Positions 1 to 60,797 are shown, numbered from the whole stretch's first letter. The stretch: DNA of 63,768 bases, filler included, from an uncultured bacterium (GCA_964449065.1; 11 parts of 11 records of this genome joined end to end with filler, not necessarily neighbours in it), one strand, 5' to 3'. Numbers and translations: made by a program. Notes: generated by a model not told the origin, from the letters alone.

Positions 1-268
1 TTAAAGCTCGCAACAATACCTACCGTATAAAATTTTGCGTAACATGAGTTAATAATCAATTTTGGTTACCGGTTCTTTAGGTATTCTTTTTGATTTTTCA
101 AGGACTACACTTCACAATAGGAAGGCGAACCTGATTCGCTCATCCTGTTTCCCTTCGTTATAAATGTTGGCAAGATCGTTAGAGCAATTTTCGTTTGTAT
201 AAAGGCCGACATTGCGCGTACTTACTCGCTGTAGCCGGTGCTCTCCAGCGATTCAACTCTGAAACGCG

Positions 269-1615
269 CTAATACAGTTCCCAAGAAGGTACGGCCGAAT
301 CTTCGATTGCGTTGTTCTTAAATACATACACCCGGCCGCTAACGGCGTTCTCCGCGCGCGCTGCATCAAGAATTGTGCATAAAACAGCAAGGTCTGTGTC
401 GCCGTCTCCGTCAAAATCATCTTTCACGGAAAAACGCGGTTCTTCCTCGATTGCCAAGGCTGCAACTTCAGTAAAAAATCCATTATCGTTCTCAAATAAT
501 TTCAAGCGGGGTACCAGCAGCGCCCCTTGTTCAACCTGCTGTACTTCTTGGACGGATACTAGCAAATCCACATCGCCATCCATATCAAAATCTTCCGCCG
601 CGACCGAATAGGCGATTCCAACCAAATCGATACTCTGTGCCGGGGTTAAGGTATCACCGGTATTGAGCATGATCTCGACCGATGCTTCCTGCCCCAAAAA
701 ACTTAATACATTATCGGGAGCGGACTGCCCGACCAATGTCACGGCAATGTCGGTTAAGCCGTCGCCGTTAAAATCCGCGGTATCTAAATCCCACGGGGCA
801 AAATCCACGGGAATCGTGACAAAGGGATTCACTCCCGCGTTCGAACCCAAAAACAGTGTGACATTTGTTTCTTCTAAAATGAGATTTAATTCCGGAATGG
901 TTATCGTCGGAATCCCTTGATTTAAGCCTACTACATCCAAAAACCCGTCATCATTAAAATCAAAGGCGAGTTCATCGACAACACTGCCTTGTACCTCAAC
1001 TTCCTGTGCGGTAGTAAAATTGCGGTTGCCTTGATTTTCAAAGAGATCGATGCCGGAATCAAATGTTATGATGCTGGCTAAATCAAATGCCAACTCTCCA
1101 TTATTGCCCACAATCACATCATTCATTCCATCTTGATTAAAATCGGTGATAATGACGGAAGAGGGGACACCGCGCATCCCGATGGATTTTTGTTCGTAAC
1201 TTCCATCTCCGTTGTTAAAGAGCATCACAAAACGGGCATTGGTAAACGGAACATTGGTGTTTTCGATGTTTTGCAACTGGGCGGCCGCGATGTCATCCAG
1301 CCCATCGCCATCCAAATCGCCCACGCTTAATGCCACCGGGTGCAGCAGGTCATTTTGCAATGGCAGTTCGATAATCTCCGTGAATTCTCCGGTGCCGTCA
1401 TTCAAGGCGATCGTGAACGCGTGGTCAAAAATATCCGCGATGACCAGATCAATATCTCCATCGCCATCGATATCACCGGAATCAATGGTGCTGCTTTGCA
1501 ATCCCGTAAAAAAGATTTGCGACAATTCGATTTTGAGTTCAGCCCAAGTTGGCTGTGTGGTCATTACAGTGGCCCATCCAATAAGACCGATTGCCAAAAG
1601 TACATGTTTCTTCAT
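269..1615 (-). CDS. Secreted FG-GAP/VCBS repeat (beta-propeller) protein with C-terminal SAVPSWELY motif
   Basis: Repeated GD[ILF][DN]GDGxxD motifs. N-terminal signal peptide MKKHVLLAIGLIG...TWA, with ATG at 1615 chosen as start. Confidence 0.85.
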   Translation of the reverse strand: MKKHVLLAIGLIGWATVMTTQPTWAELKIELSQIFFTGLQSSTIDSGDIDGDGDIDLVIADIFDHAFTIALNDGTGEFTEIIELPLQNDLLHPVALSVGDLDGDGLDDIAAAQLQNIENTNVPFTNARFVMLFNNGDGSYEQKSIGMRGVPSSVIITDFNQDGMNDVIVGNNGELAFDLASIITFDSGIDLFENQGNRNFTTAQEVEVQGSVVDELAFDFNDDGFLDVVGLNQGIPTITIPELNLILEETNVTLFLGSNAGVNPFVTIPVDFAPWDLDTADFNGDGLTDIAVTLVGQSAPDNVLSFLGQEASVEIMLNTGDTLTPAQSIDLVGIAYSVAAEDFDMDGDVDLLVSVQEVQQVEQGALLVPRLKLFENDNGFFTEVAALAIEEEPRFSVKDDFDGDGDTDLAVLCTILDAARAENAVSGRVYVFKNNAIEDSAVPSWELY

Positions 1616-1784
1616 ATCTTTACCCTCGAAATGGTTAAATTGAATAAACGAATACAATAACAGTAGTACAGTTTCTCATAGACAAAGTAACAAATTTGTG
1701 AAAATTTGTCACAAAAAAATAAAATGGTTGCTAAATCACTTCCAAAAAACTATATTGATAGAAAAAAGTGGAAATGTAAGTCCA

Positions 1785-2345
1785 ATGAATAAGAGAACCC
1801 AGGCGTTTACACTCATCGAATTACTCATTGTGGTAGCCATCATCGCCATTTTGGTGCTGATTGTGGTGCCGAATTTTATTACCGCGTTGGTGAAAAGCCG
1901 AGTCGCCCGCAGCCAAGCTGATATTAACTCTATCAGCAACGCCATCATGATGTATCGTACGGATAGCAATCGGTTACCGCCGTTATTGTTACCCGGAGAA
2001 GGCACGCAAGTTGTTTTAAAGCCCCAACATATTTCGCAACTCTTTTATTTGACTACACCTATATCTTATATAAATGCCAGTTCAGTCGAAAGCCCGTTTT
2101 CGTTTACGCACGGCTACTGGTATTACAATTGGGAATTTTTTGTCGAAACCACCGGCAAACCGCGTATGTTTTATTGGAACAACCGCAACAATCCCGAACC
2201 CTCCACCTGGATGATTTCGACAATCGGTCCTAACGGTATCCAATTCCCCTACCAAGTGCTGGAAGACAACATTCTAATGTTTCACGATTACAATCCCACC
2301 AACGGTATTGTCAGTGGCGGCATCATCCAAAAACATGGGACGTAA
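1785..2345 (+). CDS. GspG-like type II secretion pseudopilin / prepilin N-methylation domain protein
   Basis: Class III signal KRTQA|FTLIELLIVVAII. LTTPISY and SxGPNG motifs shared with the genes at 35732 and 60797. Confidence 0.85.
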   Translation: MNKRTQAFTLIELLIVVAIIAILVLIVVPNFITALVKSRVARSQADINSISNAIMMYRTDSNRLPPLLLPGEGTQVVLKPQHISQLFYLTTPISYINASSVESPFSFTHGYWYYNWEFFVETTGKPRMFYWNNRNNPEPSTWMISTIGPNGIQFPYQVLEDNILMFHDYNPTNGIVSGGIIQKHGT

Positions 2346-2453
2346 CCAAACCCTCATCAACTCGTACTTAAATCCCGGCACGAAAAGTTGTTGATTGATC
2401 CCGGTTTGGATACACTATCCATGCGATCAAGATTCTATATAAAGGGTTAGAAT

Positions 2454-5400
2454 ATGTTTCGATTATATCTGCTAGTGCTTTTCATTTCTTTGGGGTTTCT
2501 AACATATCCTCTCTCCTATTCAAAAGCACCTGTCCCAACAAGCAATGATCAAAACCGCATAATCGTTGTTTTAAAAGACCAGCCCGTATTGGTCTATCAA
2601 AAAGAACTTTCCGGCAGCAAAACGATCCATTCCGCGCGATTTCAAGCCAAATCGGCCGCCGCTCAACTCTACGCGGATGGCATCGCCGCCAAACAGCGTA
2701 GCGTGGAAACATCGATCAAGCAAATCGATCCAACCGCAAACGTCCTCAACCGTATGGCGCATGTCATCAACGCAATGGTTGTATCGATGGATGCATCGCT
2801 ACAAGATCAACTGCGTTCTATTCCGGAAGTCAAATACACAGCTCCCGTTACCAAAGTCAGGCCCTTCTTAACCCGCAGCCATACCGTGATGAATGTTGAA
2901 CCGGCTTGGGAGCAAGTGGGTGGACAGGAACAAGGCGGAGAAGGAATCTTCATCGCGGTAATCGATACCGGGATCGATGTGACCCATCCTTCTTTTGAGG
3001 ACGAAGGCTACGAGCGTCCCCAAGGGTTTCCCAAGGGCAATACACAGTTCACCAACAACAAAGTCATTGCCGCAAGAACCTTTCCCCCACCCGGCACACC
3101 ACAAGACGATGTTACGCCGGATGATACAGATGGCCACGGAACCAATGTGGCTTCGATTGCCGCGTCCAATCTGGTTTCATCCCCCTTGGGGTTAATGTCT
3201 GGCGTTGCACCCAAAGCATTTTTGGGGAACTATAAAATATTTTTTAGGGATGGGGCAGGCAGCGACCAAGTGATTGCGGGCATCAATGCCGCGGTACAAG
3301 ACGGTGCCCATGTCTTGAGCATGAGCTTCGGTTCCGAAGAATATGCCGATCCCCAGCATGACCCGCAAGTCGAAGCGGTCCAAAACGCCATCGATATGGG
3401 GGTAACCTGTGTATTTGCAGCCGGAAACGAAGGCCGCCCCCTCATGATCGGCAACCCGCAACAAGTTGAAGACGCCATAGCCGTGGCCGCTTCCCAAAAC
3501 GCGCACAATTCATCCGGGGATCCCAATACCTTATCATTCTCCGCCATTATTGAAGACATAACACAAGTATTATCCAATGTAAACGCCAACTTTGGCTTTG
3601 GTATCGATCGATTGATTGAACCACACATTGGGACATTTCGTATTCAAGATGTGGATGTGCTGGATGGCGGAGAATTCGGCGGGGAATCGGACGGATTGCT
3701 ATGTGAAGACCTCCCGGAAGATGTACGCATCGACGATTGGCTTTTGGTGCGCCGCGGGGATTGCCTATTTACCGATAAGGTCAACCGGGCACAAGCGGCT
3801 GGTGCGAAAGGGGTTATTTTTTACGACAACAACTTTAATCAGGATTTAAATACCTTTCATGGTGTAGAAAACACGCAAATCCCCAGTTTAATCATATCCA
3901 ATGTACATGGCAGGCAATTAAAAACCGCGATAGCCACTGGAAAAGAAGTTTTTATCACCATCGAACCCCGTGTTCGTGAAACCGATCCCAATAAAATGGC
4001 CTCATTCAGCAATCTCGGCCCTTCCGTCAACTTCACCGTTAAACCGGATATTTCAGCAATCGGTTTGGGAAGTTTCGGCGCCACGCAAAATGATTTTAAC
4101 AATTCCGGAGAACAAAATGAAAACGGGTTTGCCAGTTACACCTGGCTGGATGGCACCAGTATGGCAACCCCCCGCATCTCCGGTGTGGCGGCACTGGTTA
4201 AGCAACAACATCCGGATTGGCCCCCCGCTTGGATTAAATCCGCCATCGTGTTAAGCGCAACCCGAAGATTAACCAGCCCGTTTAGCGACAATCCGGCGGA
4301 AATCATCAAGCAAGGAGGTGGTTTGGCGGATACCGGTGCGGCATTGAATATTGACACCTTAGTGGTTCCGCCTATTGTAGGATTTGGGGCGCAATCGGTG
4401 TTTGCCAATTCATCTGTATCGCGTTGGATTGAAATAGTCAATACTTCCGGCCAAGAATATACGTACTCATTATTTCAAATCCAAACGCCAAACAAACCGA
4501 TATTGATCCCATCCATATCACAGTTCATTTTAAGCCCAGGTGAATCCATCCACTTTCCCGTTACCATGCAGCTGAACAACCAAATGCTGATTCAAGATCA
4601 TGAAGTGGTTCTCTTTCTGGAAAATTTAACGACCGGAGAAAAACAAGTCATTCCAACTTGGGTTAGATTATCAAACAATGTTCCGCCTTCCGGTGATATT
4701 CTGCTGGTTGATGACGATGAAGGCCGCACCTTTGAGACCTTCTATTCCCAACTGCTGTCAGAATTGGGTGAATCGTTCACCCGGTGGGATGTGAATCTTC
4801 AGGGAGAGCAATATCCAAACCTCAGTTATCTCCGCAACTTTAAAACTGTTATATGGTTTATGGGGGAAAAAAGTTTAAACACGCTGGGAGATGAAACCTC
4901 CCGCATATATTTAGAAGCCTTCAATTCCCGCCATTTGTATGAAACCGCGATGGCGCAATATTTGGCGGAAGGCGGCACCCTGTTCCTTTCCGGCCAGGAT
5001 TTTATGGATGACAAAGAATCCGCCATGATTTCCCGCGAGGTGTTGCACACGTTCATACGGGATAACAAATTCACCTTTCCTACCATTGATCGTGACGCTA
5101 CCGCGAACACCATTCAAGGCGTTGCCGACAACCCGGTGTTCAATGGTCTTGGGCCGTTTGAATTATCGTTTCCGGATAATTTTGAAGACCTAAGCGACCG
5201 TTTGTTTCCCGATGACGATACCGCACAACCTGCGTTCTTCTCCAACGGATCACAACGGCGTTTTGTGGGGATGACAGTAGATGCCTGCTCTTACAAAGCC
5301 GTGTTCTTGGCGTTTCCTTTGGAAGCGCTGAATGAAGCCGATGCCGGGCAAGTCTTATCCCGTTCTTTGGATTGGTTTGATGAGGGAGTCGTGCGCAGCC

Positions 5401-5714
5401 GTCCGAAATTGGCGTCAATTTCTCCACAGCAAATAGAGTTGAGCGATGCCCCCCAACCGCTGCAAGTGGAAATCAACGGAGAAGGATTTGCCTTGTTGAA
5501 CGGCTACCGTGCCTATTTGGGAGATACCGCGTTGATGGATGAAGCACGGCAATCCTGCAGCCTGTTAACGGCAACCATCCCCGCTGATATGAAAGAAGGG
5601 ACATATACGCTTCGAGTTGTAACTGGTGCAGGGCATCAACTGGTGCTGCCAAACGCGTTTGAAGTGATTCATACGCCGCCCGTTACAATTGAGAATTGGG
5701 AAGTGTTGGATTGA
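2454..5714 (+). CDS. S8 subtilase (Vpr-like) with I9 prodomain, PA domain and C-terminal Ig-like/IPT domains; ends VTIENWEVLD
   Basis: Catalytic motifs IDTG, HGT, AAGN and GTSMA. PA motif RRGDCLFTDK. Signal peptide present. Confidence 0.9.
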   Translation: MFRLYLLVLFISLGFLTYPLSYSKAPVPTSNDQNRIIVVLKDQPVLVYQKELSGSKTIHSARFQAKSAAAQLYADGIAAKQRSVETSIKQIDPTANVLNRMAHVINAMVVSMDASLQDQLRSIPEVKYTAPVTKVRPFLTRSHTVMNVEPAWEQVGGQEQGGEGIFIAVIDTGIDVTHPSFEDEGYERPQGFPKGNTQFTNNKVIAARTFPPPGTPQDDVTPDDTDGHGTNVASIAASNLVSSPLGLMSGVAPKAFLGNYKIFFRDGAGSDQVIAGINAAVQDGAHVLSMSFGSEEYADPQHDPQVEAVQNAIDMGVTCVFAAGNEGRPLMIGNPQQVEDAIAVAASQNAHNSSGDPNTLSFSAIIEDITQVLSNVNANFGFGIDRLIEPHIGTFRIQDVDVLDGGEFGGESDGLLCEDLPEDVRIDDWLLVRRGDCLFTDKVNRAQAAGAKGVIFYDNNFNQDLNTFHGVENTQIPSLIISNVHGRQLKTAIATGKEVFITIEPRVRETDPNKMASFSNLGPSVNFTVKPDISAIGLGSFGATQNDFNNSGEQNENGFASYTWLDGTSMATPRISGVAALVKQQHPDWPPAWIKSAIVLSATRRLTSPFSDNPAEIIKQGGGLADTGAALNIDTLVVPPIVGFGAQSVFANSSVSRWIEIVNTSGQEYTYSLFQIQTPNKPILIPSISQFILSPGESIHFPVTMQLNNQMLIQDHEVVLFLENLTTGEKQVIPTWVRLSNNVPPSGDILLVDDDEGRTFETFYSQLLSELGESFTRWDVNLQGEQYPNLSYLRNFKTVIWFMGEKSLNTLGDETSRIYLEAFNSRHLYETAMAQYLAEGGTLFLSGQDFMDDKESAMISREVLHTFIRDNKFTFPTIDRDATANTIQGVADNPVFNGLGPFELSFPDNFEDLSDRLFPDDDTAQPAFFSNGSQRRFVGMTVDACSYKAVFLAFPLEALNEADAGQVLSRSLDWFDEGVVRSRPKLASISPQQIELSDAPQPLQVEINGEGFALLNGYRAYLGDTALMDEARQSCSLLTATIPADMKEGTYTLRVVTGAGHQLVLPNAFEVIHTPPVTIENWEVLD

Positions 5715-5810
5715 AAAGATGACGAAAATAATGATGAATCTGAGTAGTGGGGAAGTAGAATAGTGTTCAACCCATCATGATCCATTAAACTTCTGTCATT
5801 TGTAATTAAA

Positions 5811-5900
5811 TAACTCACGTTACACGCTACATTATGATATGCCCATTTTTCTCATCGTTCGCTGAATCTATCACCCTCTCCCACCGGGAGAGGGACGGGG
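5811..5900 (+). repeat. Repeat family R1 (TAACTCAYGTTACGCA end plus CCCTCTCCC-N4-GGGAGAGGG hairpin), cut by contig end
   Basis: Near-identical to 35243-35382, 57980-58177 and the reverse complement of 29682-29736. Confidence 0.85.
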
Positions 5901-6000
5901 NNNNNNNNNNNNNNNNNNNNNNNNNNNNNNNNNNNNNNNNNNNNTTAATTAATTAANNNNNNNNNNNNNNNNNNNNNNNNNNNNNNNNNNNNNNNNNNNN
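5901..6000. other. Artificial contig linker
   Basis: N44-TTAATTAATTAA-N44, stops in all six frames. Identical linkers at 11856-11955, 17808-17907, 23721-23820, 29582-29681, 35383-35482, 41181-41280, 46952-47051, 52583-52682 and 58178-58277. Confidence 0.98.
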
Positions 6001-11855: not shown

Positions 11856-11955
11856 NNNNNNNNNNNNNNNNNNNNNNNNNNNNNNNNNNNNNNNNNNNNT
11901 TAATTAATTAANNNNNNNNNNNNNNNNNNNNNNNNNNNNNNNNNNNNNNNNNNNN

Positions 11956-35666: not shown

Positions 35667-35695
35667 TTGATAAATTATAATTGTTTCGCTATAGT
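35667..35695 (+). promoter_or_regulatory. Putative sigma70 promoter of the pseudopilin gene
   Basis: TTGATA-N17-TATAGT, followed by SD GAGGAGG. Confidence 0.55.
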
Positions 35696-35731
35696 TTAAG
35701 GGTGTTGAGTTATCCTGAGGAGGAAATTGTT

Positions 35732-36361
35732 ATGGAAAAGCTGTTTTCAAAACGTGGATTTACTCTTATAGAGTTACTCATTGTTGTCGCCATCATCGGT
35801 ATTTTAGCGGCAATTGCTGTGCCCAACTTTTTGAATGCGCAAGTGCGCGCCAAAGTCTCTCGTTCGGTATCGGATATGAAAAATGTCGATACCTCGCTGG
35901 AAATGTACCGCATGGACAACAATACCTATCCACCATGGCGCAAAAACCGGGCGCTAGAATCCGGGGATCCGATACACCCAAACCAAATCCGGTTTTACCG
36001 TCTTACCACTCCTGTTGCCTATATGAGTTCGATCGCAAGAGATCCATTCGTGAACTTCAATGACTTTAGCGATTACGAAAAGTGGGGAACGGCTTATGAT
36101 TATGTGGATAACAATGATCCCGATGACGGTGGTCACTCCAACGCCTATTGGTATGCATGGCGCATCAACAGTTGGGGACCCGACGGTATCAATCACTGTG
36201 CCGGCACCTGCAATGGCGGGCCTGGGTGCCCTAACGGAAAAGCCCTGTTCTTGTATCAATCATCAAACGGTTTAAACAGTCTTGGCGACATCGTTCGTGT
36301 GGGGCCAAAAGGTGGAAACTTCCCCAATGTGGAATGCCATATTTCCAATAGCATCAATTGA
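35732..36361 (+). CDS. GspG-like pseudopilin
   Basis: KRG|FTLIELLIVVAIIGILAAIAVPNF, LTTPVAY..S...DPF, SWGPDG and SNGL.S.GDI motifs. Confidence 0.88.
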   Translation: MEKLFSKRGFTLIELLIVVAIIGILAAIAVPNFLNAQVRAKVSRSVSDMKNVDTSLEMYRMDNNTYPPWRKNRALESGDPIHPNQIRFYRLTTPVAYMSSIARDPFVNFNDFSDYEKWGTAYDYVDNNDPDDGGHSNAYWYAWRINSWGPDGINHCAGTCNGGPGCPNGKALFLYQSSNGLNSLGDIVRVGPKGGNFPNVECHISNSIN

Positions 36362-55078: not shown

Positions 55079-56527
55079 ATGAAAAAACAATTTTTCGGTG
55101 TTTTGGGCGGTTTAATTGTAACGGCTGGAATCAGTCTTACTAGCCAGGCGGAAACTGTAGCATTTTTCACCTTCGACGGAATTACCGGTACCTCGTTTTC
55201 AGATGTAACCGGTAATGGTTTTATCGGCACTTTAGGTGTGCCTGCAACAGCGGGTGCCCCCGATATCGTCCCGGGCCCTTCCGGTGAGGCGGGGGATAAC
55301 GCCATCGCGATGTCCGGCGACGGCGGCATGGTGGTGGACGATTCCGCCTTATTCGCTTTGGATATCTTTTCGCCGTTCACATTGCAGGGATGGTTTAAGT
55401 CAGCAGGTACGAACCTAGTGGATGTCCCTAACGCCCTGATTAACTATGGCCGGGGCAGCGGTGGGTATGTGCTGCAAATCGGCGGCGATGAAGGCACGAT
55501 TCAGTACAACCAGCCCGGCGTAGGAACCATTGATTCAGGTGTGCCGTTTCCGTTTGACGATGAATGGCATCATTTGGCATTGGTGAATGACTTCGATACC
55601 CGTACCGTTACGTTCTATTTGGATGGAGAAGAAATCCATTCCGAAGGGGTCGCGGATAACAACTTTGCTGGGAATCCGGAATTGGTCATAGGCCGCTTAG
55701 GGTTCACACCGAACAACCCGACTTTTCAAGGATCCGTAGACCGCATTCGCATAACCACTCTCGCGTTGACACCGGATCAATTGGATTCAGACGCGGCTAG
55801 TCCGAAAGAAATTTTTCCGGATGATACCTTGGTCTTTTTCGGTTTTGATGGCGGAGAATTGCCGTTCCCCAATCAAGGGATTGAATCCGGTTTAAGCATG
55901 ATTACTGCCCGCGGGTTCGCGGCCGGTGCCGAAAACGCTCCGGAATTAAGTGATGACACGCCATCCGGGCTCGAGGGCGATCAAAGTTTGCTTACCGGCG
56001 GCGGCTCTCACGCCTTGGTGTTGGATCCAAACAAAGCGTTGGAAGTTGGCGGCGAAGGCAATGATATGACCCTGGAGGCATGGGTGAAATACGAAGCCTC
56101 CGTGACCAACGACCGTATGGTTATCTTTTATTATGGCCCCGGTTCGTATTCGTTCTCGATCAGCGGCGGTGATCCGCGATTGTTGTTTGTCACCGCGTTG
56201 CGCATTGTTGACTTCAGTTCGCAAAATGCCGTGGTCCCGCCGGATCAATGGAACCACGTTGCCTTGGTTCACCGCGATGGTGTTTCCTTCTCGTTTTATG
56301 TGAATGGAGAACTGATTGAAGAAGATGAATACACCCAAGGAATCCGCTTGGCCGAAGTCAACCAGCTGACCATCGGTTCCGAACCCAACGGTGTCTTGCC
56401 GTTTGACGGCTGGATTGACCGCGTACGCATTAGTAATGTAGCGTTGGAACCGGAAGATTTTGATTCCGACCCGGCAACATTGATTGATGTACCCCAAACA
56501 GCCGTGCAGGAATGGTCGGTATTTTAG
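55079..56527 (+). CDS. Secreted protein with two LamG domains; C-terminal TAVQEWSVF motif
   Basis: Two repeats of T...W.K, W.H.ALV, FY..G and F.G..DR.RI...AL. Signal peptide present. Confidence 0.88.
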   Translation: MKKQFFGVLGGLIVTAGISLTSQAETVAFFTFDGITGTSFSDVTGNGFIGTLGVPATAGAPDIVPGPSGEAGDNAIAMSGDGGMVVDDSALFALDIFSPFTLQGWFKSAGTNLVDVPNALINYGRGSGGYVLQIGGDEGTIQYNQPGVGTIDSGVPFPFDDEWHHLALVNDFDTRTVTFYLDGEEIHSEGVADNNFAGNPELVIGRLGFTPNNPTFQGSVDRIRITTLALTPDQLDSDAASPKEIFPDDTLVFFGFDGGELPFPNQGIESGLSMITARGFAAGAENAPELSDDTPSGLEGDQSLLTGGGSHALVLDPNKALEVGGEGNDMTLEAWVKYEASVTNDRMVIFYYGPGSYSFSISGGDPRLLFVTALRIVDFSSQNAVVPPDQWNHVALVHRDGVSFSFYVNGELIEEDEYTQGIRLAEVNQLTIGSEPNGVLPFDGWIDRVRISNVALEPEDFDSDPATLIDVPQTAVQEWSVF

Positions 56528-60209: not shown

Positions 60210-60797
60210 TTATTTCCCCACCAGCGAATCATCGCAAGGGCGAGAAACGCTTGGGCCGACTCGTGTAATATCCCCCACACTGTTCAATCCATTGGTGGCA
60301 TTGTATGTCACTACATTGCCGAACGACTGCAATCCATCCGGGCCAGCACTGGCGATTCGCCATTGGCTGCAGCGGAATGACGCGCCTAAGGTTTGGTTCC
60401 CCAGGGTGTTATAAACAGACCACGCATCCACATAATCATACGAGTCATACGCCGGGTGCGATTGTTCGACAATGGTTTCGCCGCCGATTGTTTCCAAGAA
60501 CGGGTCCTGCCCGATCGACGACATATACGCAATCGGGGTCGTTAACGGATTCAATCGTGCCGAAACCGGCCATATATTGCCGCCATCAAAAGTGAGAAAT
60601 ACAGGATACATGTTGTTATCCATTTGATACATCTCCAAAGCCGTACCCATGTTCCGTAATTCCGATTCCACTCTTGCGATCTTGGCTTTCAGCTGCGCGT
60701 TTAAAAAATTCGGGACGGCAATCGCCGCCAAAATGCCGATAATGGCCACAACAATTAACAACTCAATCAGGGTAAACGCTTGCAAAGGGCGCTTCAT
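60210..60797 (-). CDS. GspG-like pseudopilin
   Basis: QA|FTLIELLIVVAIIGILAAIAVPNF, LTTPIAY..S...DPF, SAGPDG and TNGL.S.GDI motifs. Confidence 0.88.
   Translation of the reverse strand: MKRPLQAFTLIELLIVVAIIGILAAIAVPNFLNAQLKAKIARVESELRNMGTALEMYQMDNNMYPVFLTFDGGNIWPVSARLNPLTTPIAYMSSIGQDPFLETIGGETIVEQSHPAYDSYDYVDAWSVYNTLGNQTLGASFRCSQWRIASAGPDGLQSFGNVVTYNATNGLNSVGDITRVGPSVSRPCDDSLVGK

Follow-up and report, generated by a model that had tools for sequence, protein, structure and literature searches.

The window, by which we mean the whole analysed stretch of 63,768 nucleotides with filler included, comes from the genome of an uncultured bacterium (GCA_964449065.1; 5.22 Mb in 515 contigs, 47% GC, 86.7% complete) and consists of 11 contigs of approximately 5.5–5.9 kb each with N spacers between them. 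Because short contigs are joined in this way, the three genes that first drew attention are spread over two of them: the genes for an exported FG-GAP protein and for a subtilase lie on contig C325, and the gene for a LamG protein lies on C335 (Table 1). The reading frame of the FG-GAP gene is open from a TTG at position 1657, and its ATG at 1615 yields the product listed in the table. Divergent from it, and upstream of the subtilase gene, stands a pseudopilin-like gene, with its ATG at 1785 in a frame that is open from a GTG at 1698.

Table 1. Tail-bearing and pseudopilin-like genes of the window, numbered from the first letter of the whole stretch
Feature	Position	Strand	Basis or remark
FG-GAP tail: stop codon and ten codons (DSAVPSWELY)	269..301	-	Flagged stretch
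Exported FG-GAP beta-propeller gene, tail cargo	269..1615	-	Pfam FG-GAP_3 and FG-GAP; 448 aa
Pseudopilin-like gene, 186 aa	1785..2345	+	Pfam N_methyl; NCBIfam GspG below cut-off
Exported S8 subtilase with PA domain, 1086 aa	2454..5714	+	Pfam
Subtilase tail (PVTIENWEVLD)	5679..5711		
Pseudopilin family member, no adjoining tail gene	35681..36361	+	Pfam N_methyl and T2SSG
Exported double LamG protein, 482 aa	55079..56527	+	Pfam Laminin_G_3
LamG tail (QTAVQEWSVF)	56495..56524		
Pseudopilin family member, no adjoining tail gene	60210..60797	-	Pfam N_methyl

A sequence-only reading of this DNA had proposed that the three exported proteins, which are unrelated, share a short C-terminal motif built around a tryptophan. 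Their C-termini do read as it gave them, EDSAVPSWELY in the FG-GAP protein, PQTAVQEWSVF in the LamG protein and PPVTIENWEVLD in the S8 subtilase, and Pfam bears out its domain calls (FG-GAP, Peptidase_S8 with a PA domain, and Laminin_G_3). The window proteins that it had named as lacking the motif, a TolC-like OEP, an SBP_bac_5 lipoprotein, a sulfatase and an HtrA/DegP protein, indeed lack it, as does the porin among the window's envelope proteins that were compared. No match to the subtilase was found by tblastn at the orthologous FG-GAP loci or at the corresponding locus of a genome from another genus (G011). For positions 1–5900, a look-up of RNA evidence gave no entry.

A C-terminal tail shared by exported proteins

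Crude calling of the window's genome, longest frames first and with no overlaps, gave a set of 4631 ORFs, in which the motif is far too frequent at the C-terminus. From its frequency inside the proteins (349 occurrences), W-x-[LVI]-[YF] should stand directly before a stop 1.1 times; it does so 40 times. No terminal tetrapeptide is commoner than WSLY (13 cases), and Trp is twice as frequent at the fourth-last position as it is overall. A position matrix iterated from W-x-[LVI]-[YF] seeds until it settled collects 72 tailed proteins, where 0.09 would be expected by chance because just 9 of 1,377,483 internal positions reach the same score. The resulting consensus is [PG]-[ST]-x-V-x-[EDN]-W-[SE]-[LVI]-[YF], with Phe instead of Trp in 8 of the 72. 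Placement is strict: 53 proteins end exactly at [YF], 18 continue for one residue and one for two. The LamG tail scores 21.2 on this matrix; that of the subtilase is a weaker variant with one additional residue and scores 17.0 at offset 1. A motif confined to the three proteins first flagged is thereby excluded.

The 72 proteins are overwhelmingly bound for export. A strongly hydrophobic N-terminus is present in 62 of them versus 1541 of the 4559 other ORFs (Fisher p 1e-19), which upholds the association with secreted proteins, and the remaining ten mostly have milder Sec signals or, in a DUF1501 protein, a Tat signal. The tail itself contains no transmembrane helix, as had been noted from the first three examples: the highest mean Kyte–Doolittle value over 15 residues in the last 45 aa of the 72 proteins is 1.55. 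Pfam, run on 40 of the 72, assigns a family to 17 and none to 23. The families are Laminin_G_3 (LamG), CBM9, CBM96, DUF1501, FG-GAP/ASPIC, heparinase II/III, fasciclin, WD40, Kelch with a metalloprotease, DUF5123 and pectinesterase-like, so that lectin-like, carbohydrate-binding, protease, lyase-like, propeller and fasciclin types are all represented.

The FG-GAP family allows the tail to be followed among orthologues. Of the 35 phylum genomes, 24 have an FG-GAP match, namely the window's own and 23 others with one orthologue each, and the tail is kept at 22 of the 24 loci, the two exceptions being a mis-picked frame and a gene broken by a TGA. In an alignment of 21 orthologues, which are 28–53% identical to the window's protein, W445 is invariant and V442 is found in at least 90%, while the flanking residues vary. 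The tail is present in 19 of the 20 nearest public homologues of the FG-GAP protein (the exception ends in WELW), and none of the next 100, more distant, FG-GAP homologues has it. An AlphaFold model of the window's protein, computed from the orthologue alignment, is a confident propeller (pLDDT 89.4, pTM 0.86) with its last strand at residues 426–434. Beyond it, pLDDT is below 50 at residues 441–443 and 446–448, and the last block, 441–448, averages 47; as modelled, the tail is a free peptide outside the fold.

These observations bear on the view that the tail is no signal at all, and instead either caps the end of the structure or is left over from a C-terminal module that spread through domain shuffling or common descent. 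Many cargo proteins end in lectin-like domains whose last strands are similar (F-x-D-N-x-x-V), so part of the resemblance could travel with the domain. A non-signal origin is nevertheless very improbable, given that the tail also stands behind folds with no relation to one another (propeller, subtilase, fasciclin, WD40 and DUF1501), appears unstructured in the FG-GAP model, retains its key residues among divergent orthologues while their neighbours change, disappears altogether from the more distant FG-GAP homologues and is restricted to exported proteins.

At the level of DNA, we searched for [ST]-x-V-x-x-W-x-Phi-[YF]-stop, where the same pattern written backwards serves as the control. The window's genome has 23 matches versus 3 for the control, the LamG tail among the 23, and all 35 species genomes of the phylum yield matches, most of them in excess of the control. 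Enrichment is strong in each of the 19 genomes of the window's family (21–66 matches versus 0–6). The two genomes of a second family have 18 versus 2 and 4 versus 2, the latter genome being 77% complete; four genomes of a third family have 11–23 versus 2–6; seven genomes of the deepest large family have 6–32 versus 1–6; and two families of a single genome each have 5 versus 1 and 6 versus 3. Outside the phylum, 8 outgroup genomes show no enrichment (0–3 matches versus 0–4). These were chosen through their distant PorU-like genes (25–31% identity) and are labelled by their depositors as Poribacteria, Chloroflexia, Terriglobales, Latescibacterota, Handelsmanbacteria, KSB1, ‘delta proteobacterium’ and ‘Cytophagia’.

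Close relatives of the window's genome carry the public names ‘Candidatus Omnitrophota/Omnitrophica bacterium’ and ‘Candidatus Hinthialibacter sp.’, from which we conclude that the phylum is probably Hinthialibacterota. In the part of PMC9324843 consulted, OLB16, now Hinthialibacterota, is described as once placed in Omnitrophota, and the words secretion, C-terminal, pseudopilin and sortase do not occur in that part. We found no description of the tail in the open literature, subscription journals lying outside the scope of the search.

The tail had originally been proposed to be a lineage-specific signal for export or surface attachment, a proposal in which neither of the candidate readers discussed below, pseudopilins and PorU-like proteases, figured. 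The phylum-wide distribution confirms that it is lineage-specific, and its statistics strongly imply that it is a signal; export or attachment is a role that we infer. Judged from sequence, the tail is very probably a functional recognition tag on proteins destined for the outside of the cell.

Pseudopilin genes beside the tailed cargo

The window's own pseudopilin-like gene is one of many. Among the 4631 ORFs of the genome, 110 have pseudopilin-like N-termini, and 103 of these belong to one BLAST family with a common S-N-G-x-x-S-x-G-D end motif. The product of the gene at 1785..2345 has a recognizable prepilin motif (TIGR02532 at 25.8 bits, above the cut-off of 16.3), and its N-terminal part matches the NCBIfam GspG model at 44.8 bits, below the cut-off of 88.85; Pfam gives nothing beyond N_methyl. 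In its predicted structure (pLDDT 69), a long helix at the N-terminus is accompanied by a small sheet. When this model was compared with the PDB in Foldseek, nothing was retrieved at E<=0.001, and even the top rows, for PilW, the Xcp pseudopilus and FimA, were weak, with E values above 2.

Genes for pilins of this kind lie next to tail genes far more often than next to others. An immediate pilin neighbour is found for 17 of the 72 tail genes versus 52 of 1082 other exported-looking genes (p 2.4e-7), the latter defined by a hydrophobicity rule on the crude ORF set, and versus 147 of 4449 genes when all others are counted (p 3.4e-10). Adjacency is thus approximately five times commoner for tail genes than for other exported-looking genes. 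Most of the pairs are on a common strand with a gap of 4–325 bp. Within two positions of a tail gene, 21 of 232 genes encode pilins, where 5.5 would be expected.

The association extends to other genomes. In the genome from another genus (G011), the first 20 tail matches listed led to 27 tail genes, and a pilin gene adjoins 7 of these (binomial p 2.5e-5). A pilin gene adjoins the FG-GAP orthologue, in divergent orientation, at all 24 loci, which represent three families, and these linked pilins are conserved above their cargo, with a mean column identity of 59% versus 47%. On the deepest branch (G001), the three true tail matches all lie 2.2–2.8 kb from pilin matches, of which there are merely 28 in 5 Mb. 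Across the 10 phylum genomes tested, a pilin DNA pattern gives 28–206 matches, and its control gives none. Secretins are widespread too, with 3–9 matches in each of the 35 phylum genomes.

The 8 outgroup genomes show no such pilin expansion, with 0–2 matches to the pattern. Since tail and pilin expansion are both absent there, the tail appears to travel with the pilin expansion and not with the presence of PorU-like proteases, in a comparison that comprises few genomes picked via the protease. Over the 10 phylum genomes, pilin and tail counts are correlated (Spearman rho 0.66), which is a hint only, these genomes being kin; the genome with the most pilin matches (G003, 206) has few tail matches (18).

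The adjacency is partial, and it can be read in more than one way. Just 17 of the 110 pilins have a tail gene as neighbour, and about a quarter of the tail genes have a pilin neighbour. The proximity may reflect co-regulation in loci for polymer degradation rather than physical contact, and a tag that is universal argues for one common reader and against 100 different pilins. Expansion of pilins without the tail may exist elsewhere; Planctomycetota have large prepilin expansions (DUF1559). Fusions of pilin and cargo did not appear among the 110 pilins: only three of them reach 260 aa, with no recognizable cargo-type end or grafted lectin-type module.

The cargo offers a further point of contact with this kind of machinery. 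Type II secretion systems (T2SSs), which depend on a Gsp-type pseudopilus and a secretin, take up folded proteins that have been exported by Sec or Tat, and the DUF1501 cargo carries a twin-arginine signal. This cargo would thus already be folded on arrival in the periplasm, in keeping with a T2SS-type route. We know of no classical T2SS that uses a linear signal.

PorU-like proteases and other candidate readers

In type IX secretion (T9SS), PorU cleaves its substrates and then attaches them to a surface molecule. The window's genome encodes two PorU-like proteins, of 1809 aa (C28) and 1254 aa (C421), each with Peptidase_C25 and CARDB domains, and they suggest a different reader. The tail would be both the recognition site and the leaving group of a sortase-type reaction, with a putative cut at [ST]-x-V, after which the cut protein would be released or its new C-terminus joined to a surface molecule, all of this without a folded C-terminal domain (CTD), PorV or SprA.

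Several features of these enzymes agree with such a reaction. The pair matches NF033707 with 236 and 184 bits, over model positions 62–760 and 74–732 of 1095, so that the likeness to PorU extends well past the catalytic domain. PorU-like matches are found in all 35 phylum genomes, mostly as a pair of proteins near 1800 and 1250 aa in length. The His of GHGG and the Cys of WSC, which we take to be the C25 catalytic pair, are invariant in 12 large PorU-like forms. The usual partners of PorU are missing: PorV is found in none of the 35 genomes (NF033710, which matched the control genome, though below cut-off), and T9SS CTDs exceed their cut-off in only three. A search of the window's genome for SprA (TIGR04189) gave no match, which is weak evidence of absence, since the control was matched nowhere either. 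With PorV not found and the CTDs probably foreign, the two proteins are therefore PorU-like enzymes apparently without a type IX system. The T9SS CTD matches in the window's genome (C415 and C224) and a third, gingipain-like, C25 gene (C342) were set aside as probable contaminants of the bin because of their GC content, which is 33–39% versus 47% for the genome.

The tail sequence gives this reaction some encouragement, as [ST]-x-[VI] opens 48 of the 72 tails and is akin to the CTD cleavage consensus. That consensus is PT/GI in Prevotella intermedia, with Ile the most conserved position, according to the part of PMC11969387 used here; judged by that part, the likeness is loose, P-[ST]-x-[VI] being present in just two of the 72 tails. 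All PorU-like scores fall below the NCBIfam cut-off of 420 bits, the best being 249 bits. Eight PorU-like loci in four genomes have no partner in common across families and no consistent tail or pilin genes. The 8 outgroup genomes hold distant PorU-like genes without enrichment of the tail, so the enzyme family alone fails to predict the tag. A mere leaving group, moreover, would not need the strict placement within 0–1 residues of the end seen in 71 of the 72 proteins. On balance, we regard a PorU-like sortase as an unlikely reader of the tail.

That same strictness can be taken to favour yet another component, which would bind the free end of a true tag: a PDZ protein of the HtrA/DegP, Prc/CtpA or GspC-like type gripping free hydrophobic C-termini, or an outer-membrane receptor that takes up the tail as a beta-strand. 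The motif is tied to the C-terminus, with 53 proteins ending exactly, 18 one residue later and one two residues later, and it ends in a hydrophobic and an aromatic residue with Ser or Glu at position -2, a composition that presumably resembles PDZ ligand classes. The tail is flexible in the FG-GAP model, and the window itself has a gene for a PDZ-containing HtrA-type protease. HtrA-type PDZ proteases, however, are near-universal and explain a phylum-restricted tag poorly, and the one additional residue in a quarter of the tails fits strict binding of the carboxylate poorly. No specific candidate emerged, and a PDZ or receptor reader leaves the pilin adjacency unexplained; the chances of this reader, whether a PDZ protein or a receptor, seem low to us.

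We therefore rank the pilus-type route first among the readers, the PorU-like sortase second and another reader third. The first two may also act in sequence.

A possible pilus-type route and its relation to known systems

Taken together, the tail reads as a phylum-wide end-tag whose likely use, with a probability that we put at roughly 0.4 from sequence analysis, is as an address label for an export or display machine of the type-4-filament class, built from pseudopilins and secretins. In such a route, a folded protein, once in the periplasm, would present the free strand at its C-terminus to a pseudopilin or to the machine that assembles the pseudopilus, and the receiving pseudopilin would often be encoded next door to the cargo gene. 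Once docked, the cargo would either be driven out through one of several secretins or stay attached to a short filament at the surface. In a later step the PorU-like proteases, for which no direct link to the tail was found, may trim or anchor the cargo. The complete scheme, in which a linear ten-residue C-terminal signal serves a pseudopilus-driven route with dedicated pseudopilin docking, passage through a secretin or display on a filament, and trimming or fixing by PorU-like enzymes, is rather doubtful in all its parts at once.

Type II secretion has no known linear signal, and how pilus-type machines choose folded proteins for passage across the outer membrane has therefore long been a question. 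If the proposed route holds, the tail would provide a type II-like route with its first simple sequence signal, and the giant prepilin families of PVC-like bacteria would acquire a function. It would suggest a possible role for prepilin families of at least 100 genes, and for PorU-like proteases outside type IX secretion. The tag would let the presumed extracellular secretome of the phylum be predicted from sequence, and it provides a defined peptide with which the reader could be fished out. Should a reader be found, so short and portable a tag would be of practical use in protein display.

Among existing sorting-signal families, NCBIfam finds no match at E<=10 on 13 C-terminal pieces of 79 residues, in agreement with the initial impression that the tail belongs to none of them. 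One LamG cargo (L015) has a match to TafC (NF052521), which covers the LamG body (residues 52–250) and not the tail.

One close parallel is the type A CTD of the T9SS (TIGR04183/PF18962), which likewise marks Sec-exported lectins, proteases and adhesin-like proteins at the C-terminus. The phylum keeps PorU-like C25 proteases, and the tail opens with Thr/Ser-x-Val/Ile in the manner of the CTD cleavage site (PMC11969387, in the part consulted). That CTD is a folded beta-sandwich of approximately 60–100 residues that includes motifs B, D and E. The tail, by contrast, is 10 residues long, and Pfam reports no Por_Secre_tail, and hence no T9SS CTD, in the three window cargo or in 40 further cargo proteins. 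The PorU-like proteins of the phylum also differ from a PorU that has a CTD, carrying CARDB domains instead.

LPXTG/sortase, PEP-CTERM/exosortase and GlyGly-CTERM/rhombosortase resemble the tail system in that a short, lineage-restricted motif near the C-terminus marks unrelated exported proteins. In these tripartite signals, the motif is followed by a membrane helix and a basic tail. Here, in contrast to these and to MYXO-CTERM, the proteins end 0–2 residues past the motif, with no hydrophobic stretch. The terminal aromatic residue after hydrophobic ones recalls the beta-signal of outer-membrane barrels that is read by BamA, but the cargo proteins have soluble folds, and the barrel proteins of the window (OEP and porin) are without the W motif.

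With type II secretion the system shares GspG-like pseudopilins, here as neighbours of the cargo, and abundant secretins (GspD is the secretin of T2SSs). A classical T2SS has five pseudopilins, whereas the 10 phylum genomes tested have 28–206 pilin genes each, scattered beside cargo genes, together with a linear end-tag. The very large size of the prepilin-type family is matched by the DUF1559/SBP_bac_10 prepilin-like expansion of Planctomycetota, for which, to our knowledge, no tail-tagged partner proteins have been described. A final parallel comes from PilB of Streptococcus sanguinis, characterized in the part of PMC8179133 consulted as a modular type IV pilin with a functional module outside the cell. 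PilB carries its module as part of the pilin itself, whereas the pilin and the module described here are encoded separately, and the tail would, by conjecture, be what joins their products.

Tail-bearing proteins in the window's genome

The ten-residue C-terminal tail is not limited to Sec substrates, because L021, a DUF1501 cargo protein, opens with a twin-arginine signal (MNMNRRSFFQTG...) and ends in TAVPQWSLY. Variants of the tail, F-M-L-Y and Y-M-L-H among them, also end all six members of a family of paralogous exported proteins of 500–850 aa, whose N-termini read, for example, Q-[IV]-G-[IV]-F; three of the six are encoded consecutively on contig C66, and the family matches nothing in Pfam. 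Two copies of the full motif are internal (NTPVMDWNIF... and SPVDEWHLY...), lying 17–59 residues ahead of the called stop, and may mark an old C-terminus that is now read through, or be due to a frameshift or to chance.

Positions of tail-bearing loci, internal motif copies and window spacers
Feature	Position	Description
L192	G001:C12:281000-294000	two large tail proteins in tandem
L193	G001:C12:320000-333000	two large tail proteins in tandem
L021, DUF1501 protein	G000:C263:1757-3097	twin-arginine signal and C-terminal tail
Exported paralogue family	G000:C66:1088-5905, C66:6221, C9:33002-36603, C105:2475	tail variants at C-termini
Internal full-motif copies	G000:C49:8825-11464; G000:C179:6722-7309	
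L015, small LamG cargo protein	G000:C50:18368-19135	NCBIfam TafC match
N spacers	window, 10 sites, e.g. 5901-6000, 11856-11955	

Make-up of the window and foreign contigs in the bin

The window consists of 11 contigs of about 5.5–5.9 kb each, linked by paired N runs, rather than one stretch of the genome, and distances between its parts are therefore meaningless. Outside it, three contigs of the same assembly (C342, C415 and C224) have a GC content of 33–39%, versus 47% genome-wide, and encode two classical type IX secretion CTD proteins and a C25 protease that resembles gingipains and includes a propeptide domain. These contigs are probably bin contaminants from a Bacteroidota-like organism.

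Tandem tail proteins and type-4-filament parts

Two loci of G001, the deepest-branching phylum genome, share one arrangement, in which the first protein of each tandem ends in SEV[AP]SW[RV][LV]Y and the second in W-x-L-Y-R, with a hit for pilins, one of the candidate tail readers, approximately 2–3 kb away; the high GC content of this genome goes with unreliable ORF calls. The load of type-4-filament parts in the phylum is unusual, with 3–9 secretin matches in each of its genomes (G000–G034) and 28–206 prepilin-type genes per genome in the 10 tested.

LamG cargo and haloarchaeal fimbriae

The small LamG cargo proteins L015 and L036 match the NCBIfam model TafC (E values of 1e-12 and 1.5e-6, far under the cut-off), and the match spans the LamG body. 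TafC is a subunit of the Tat-dependent fimbriae of haloarchaea.
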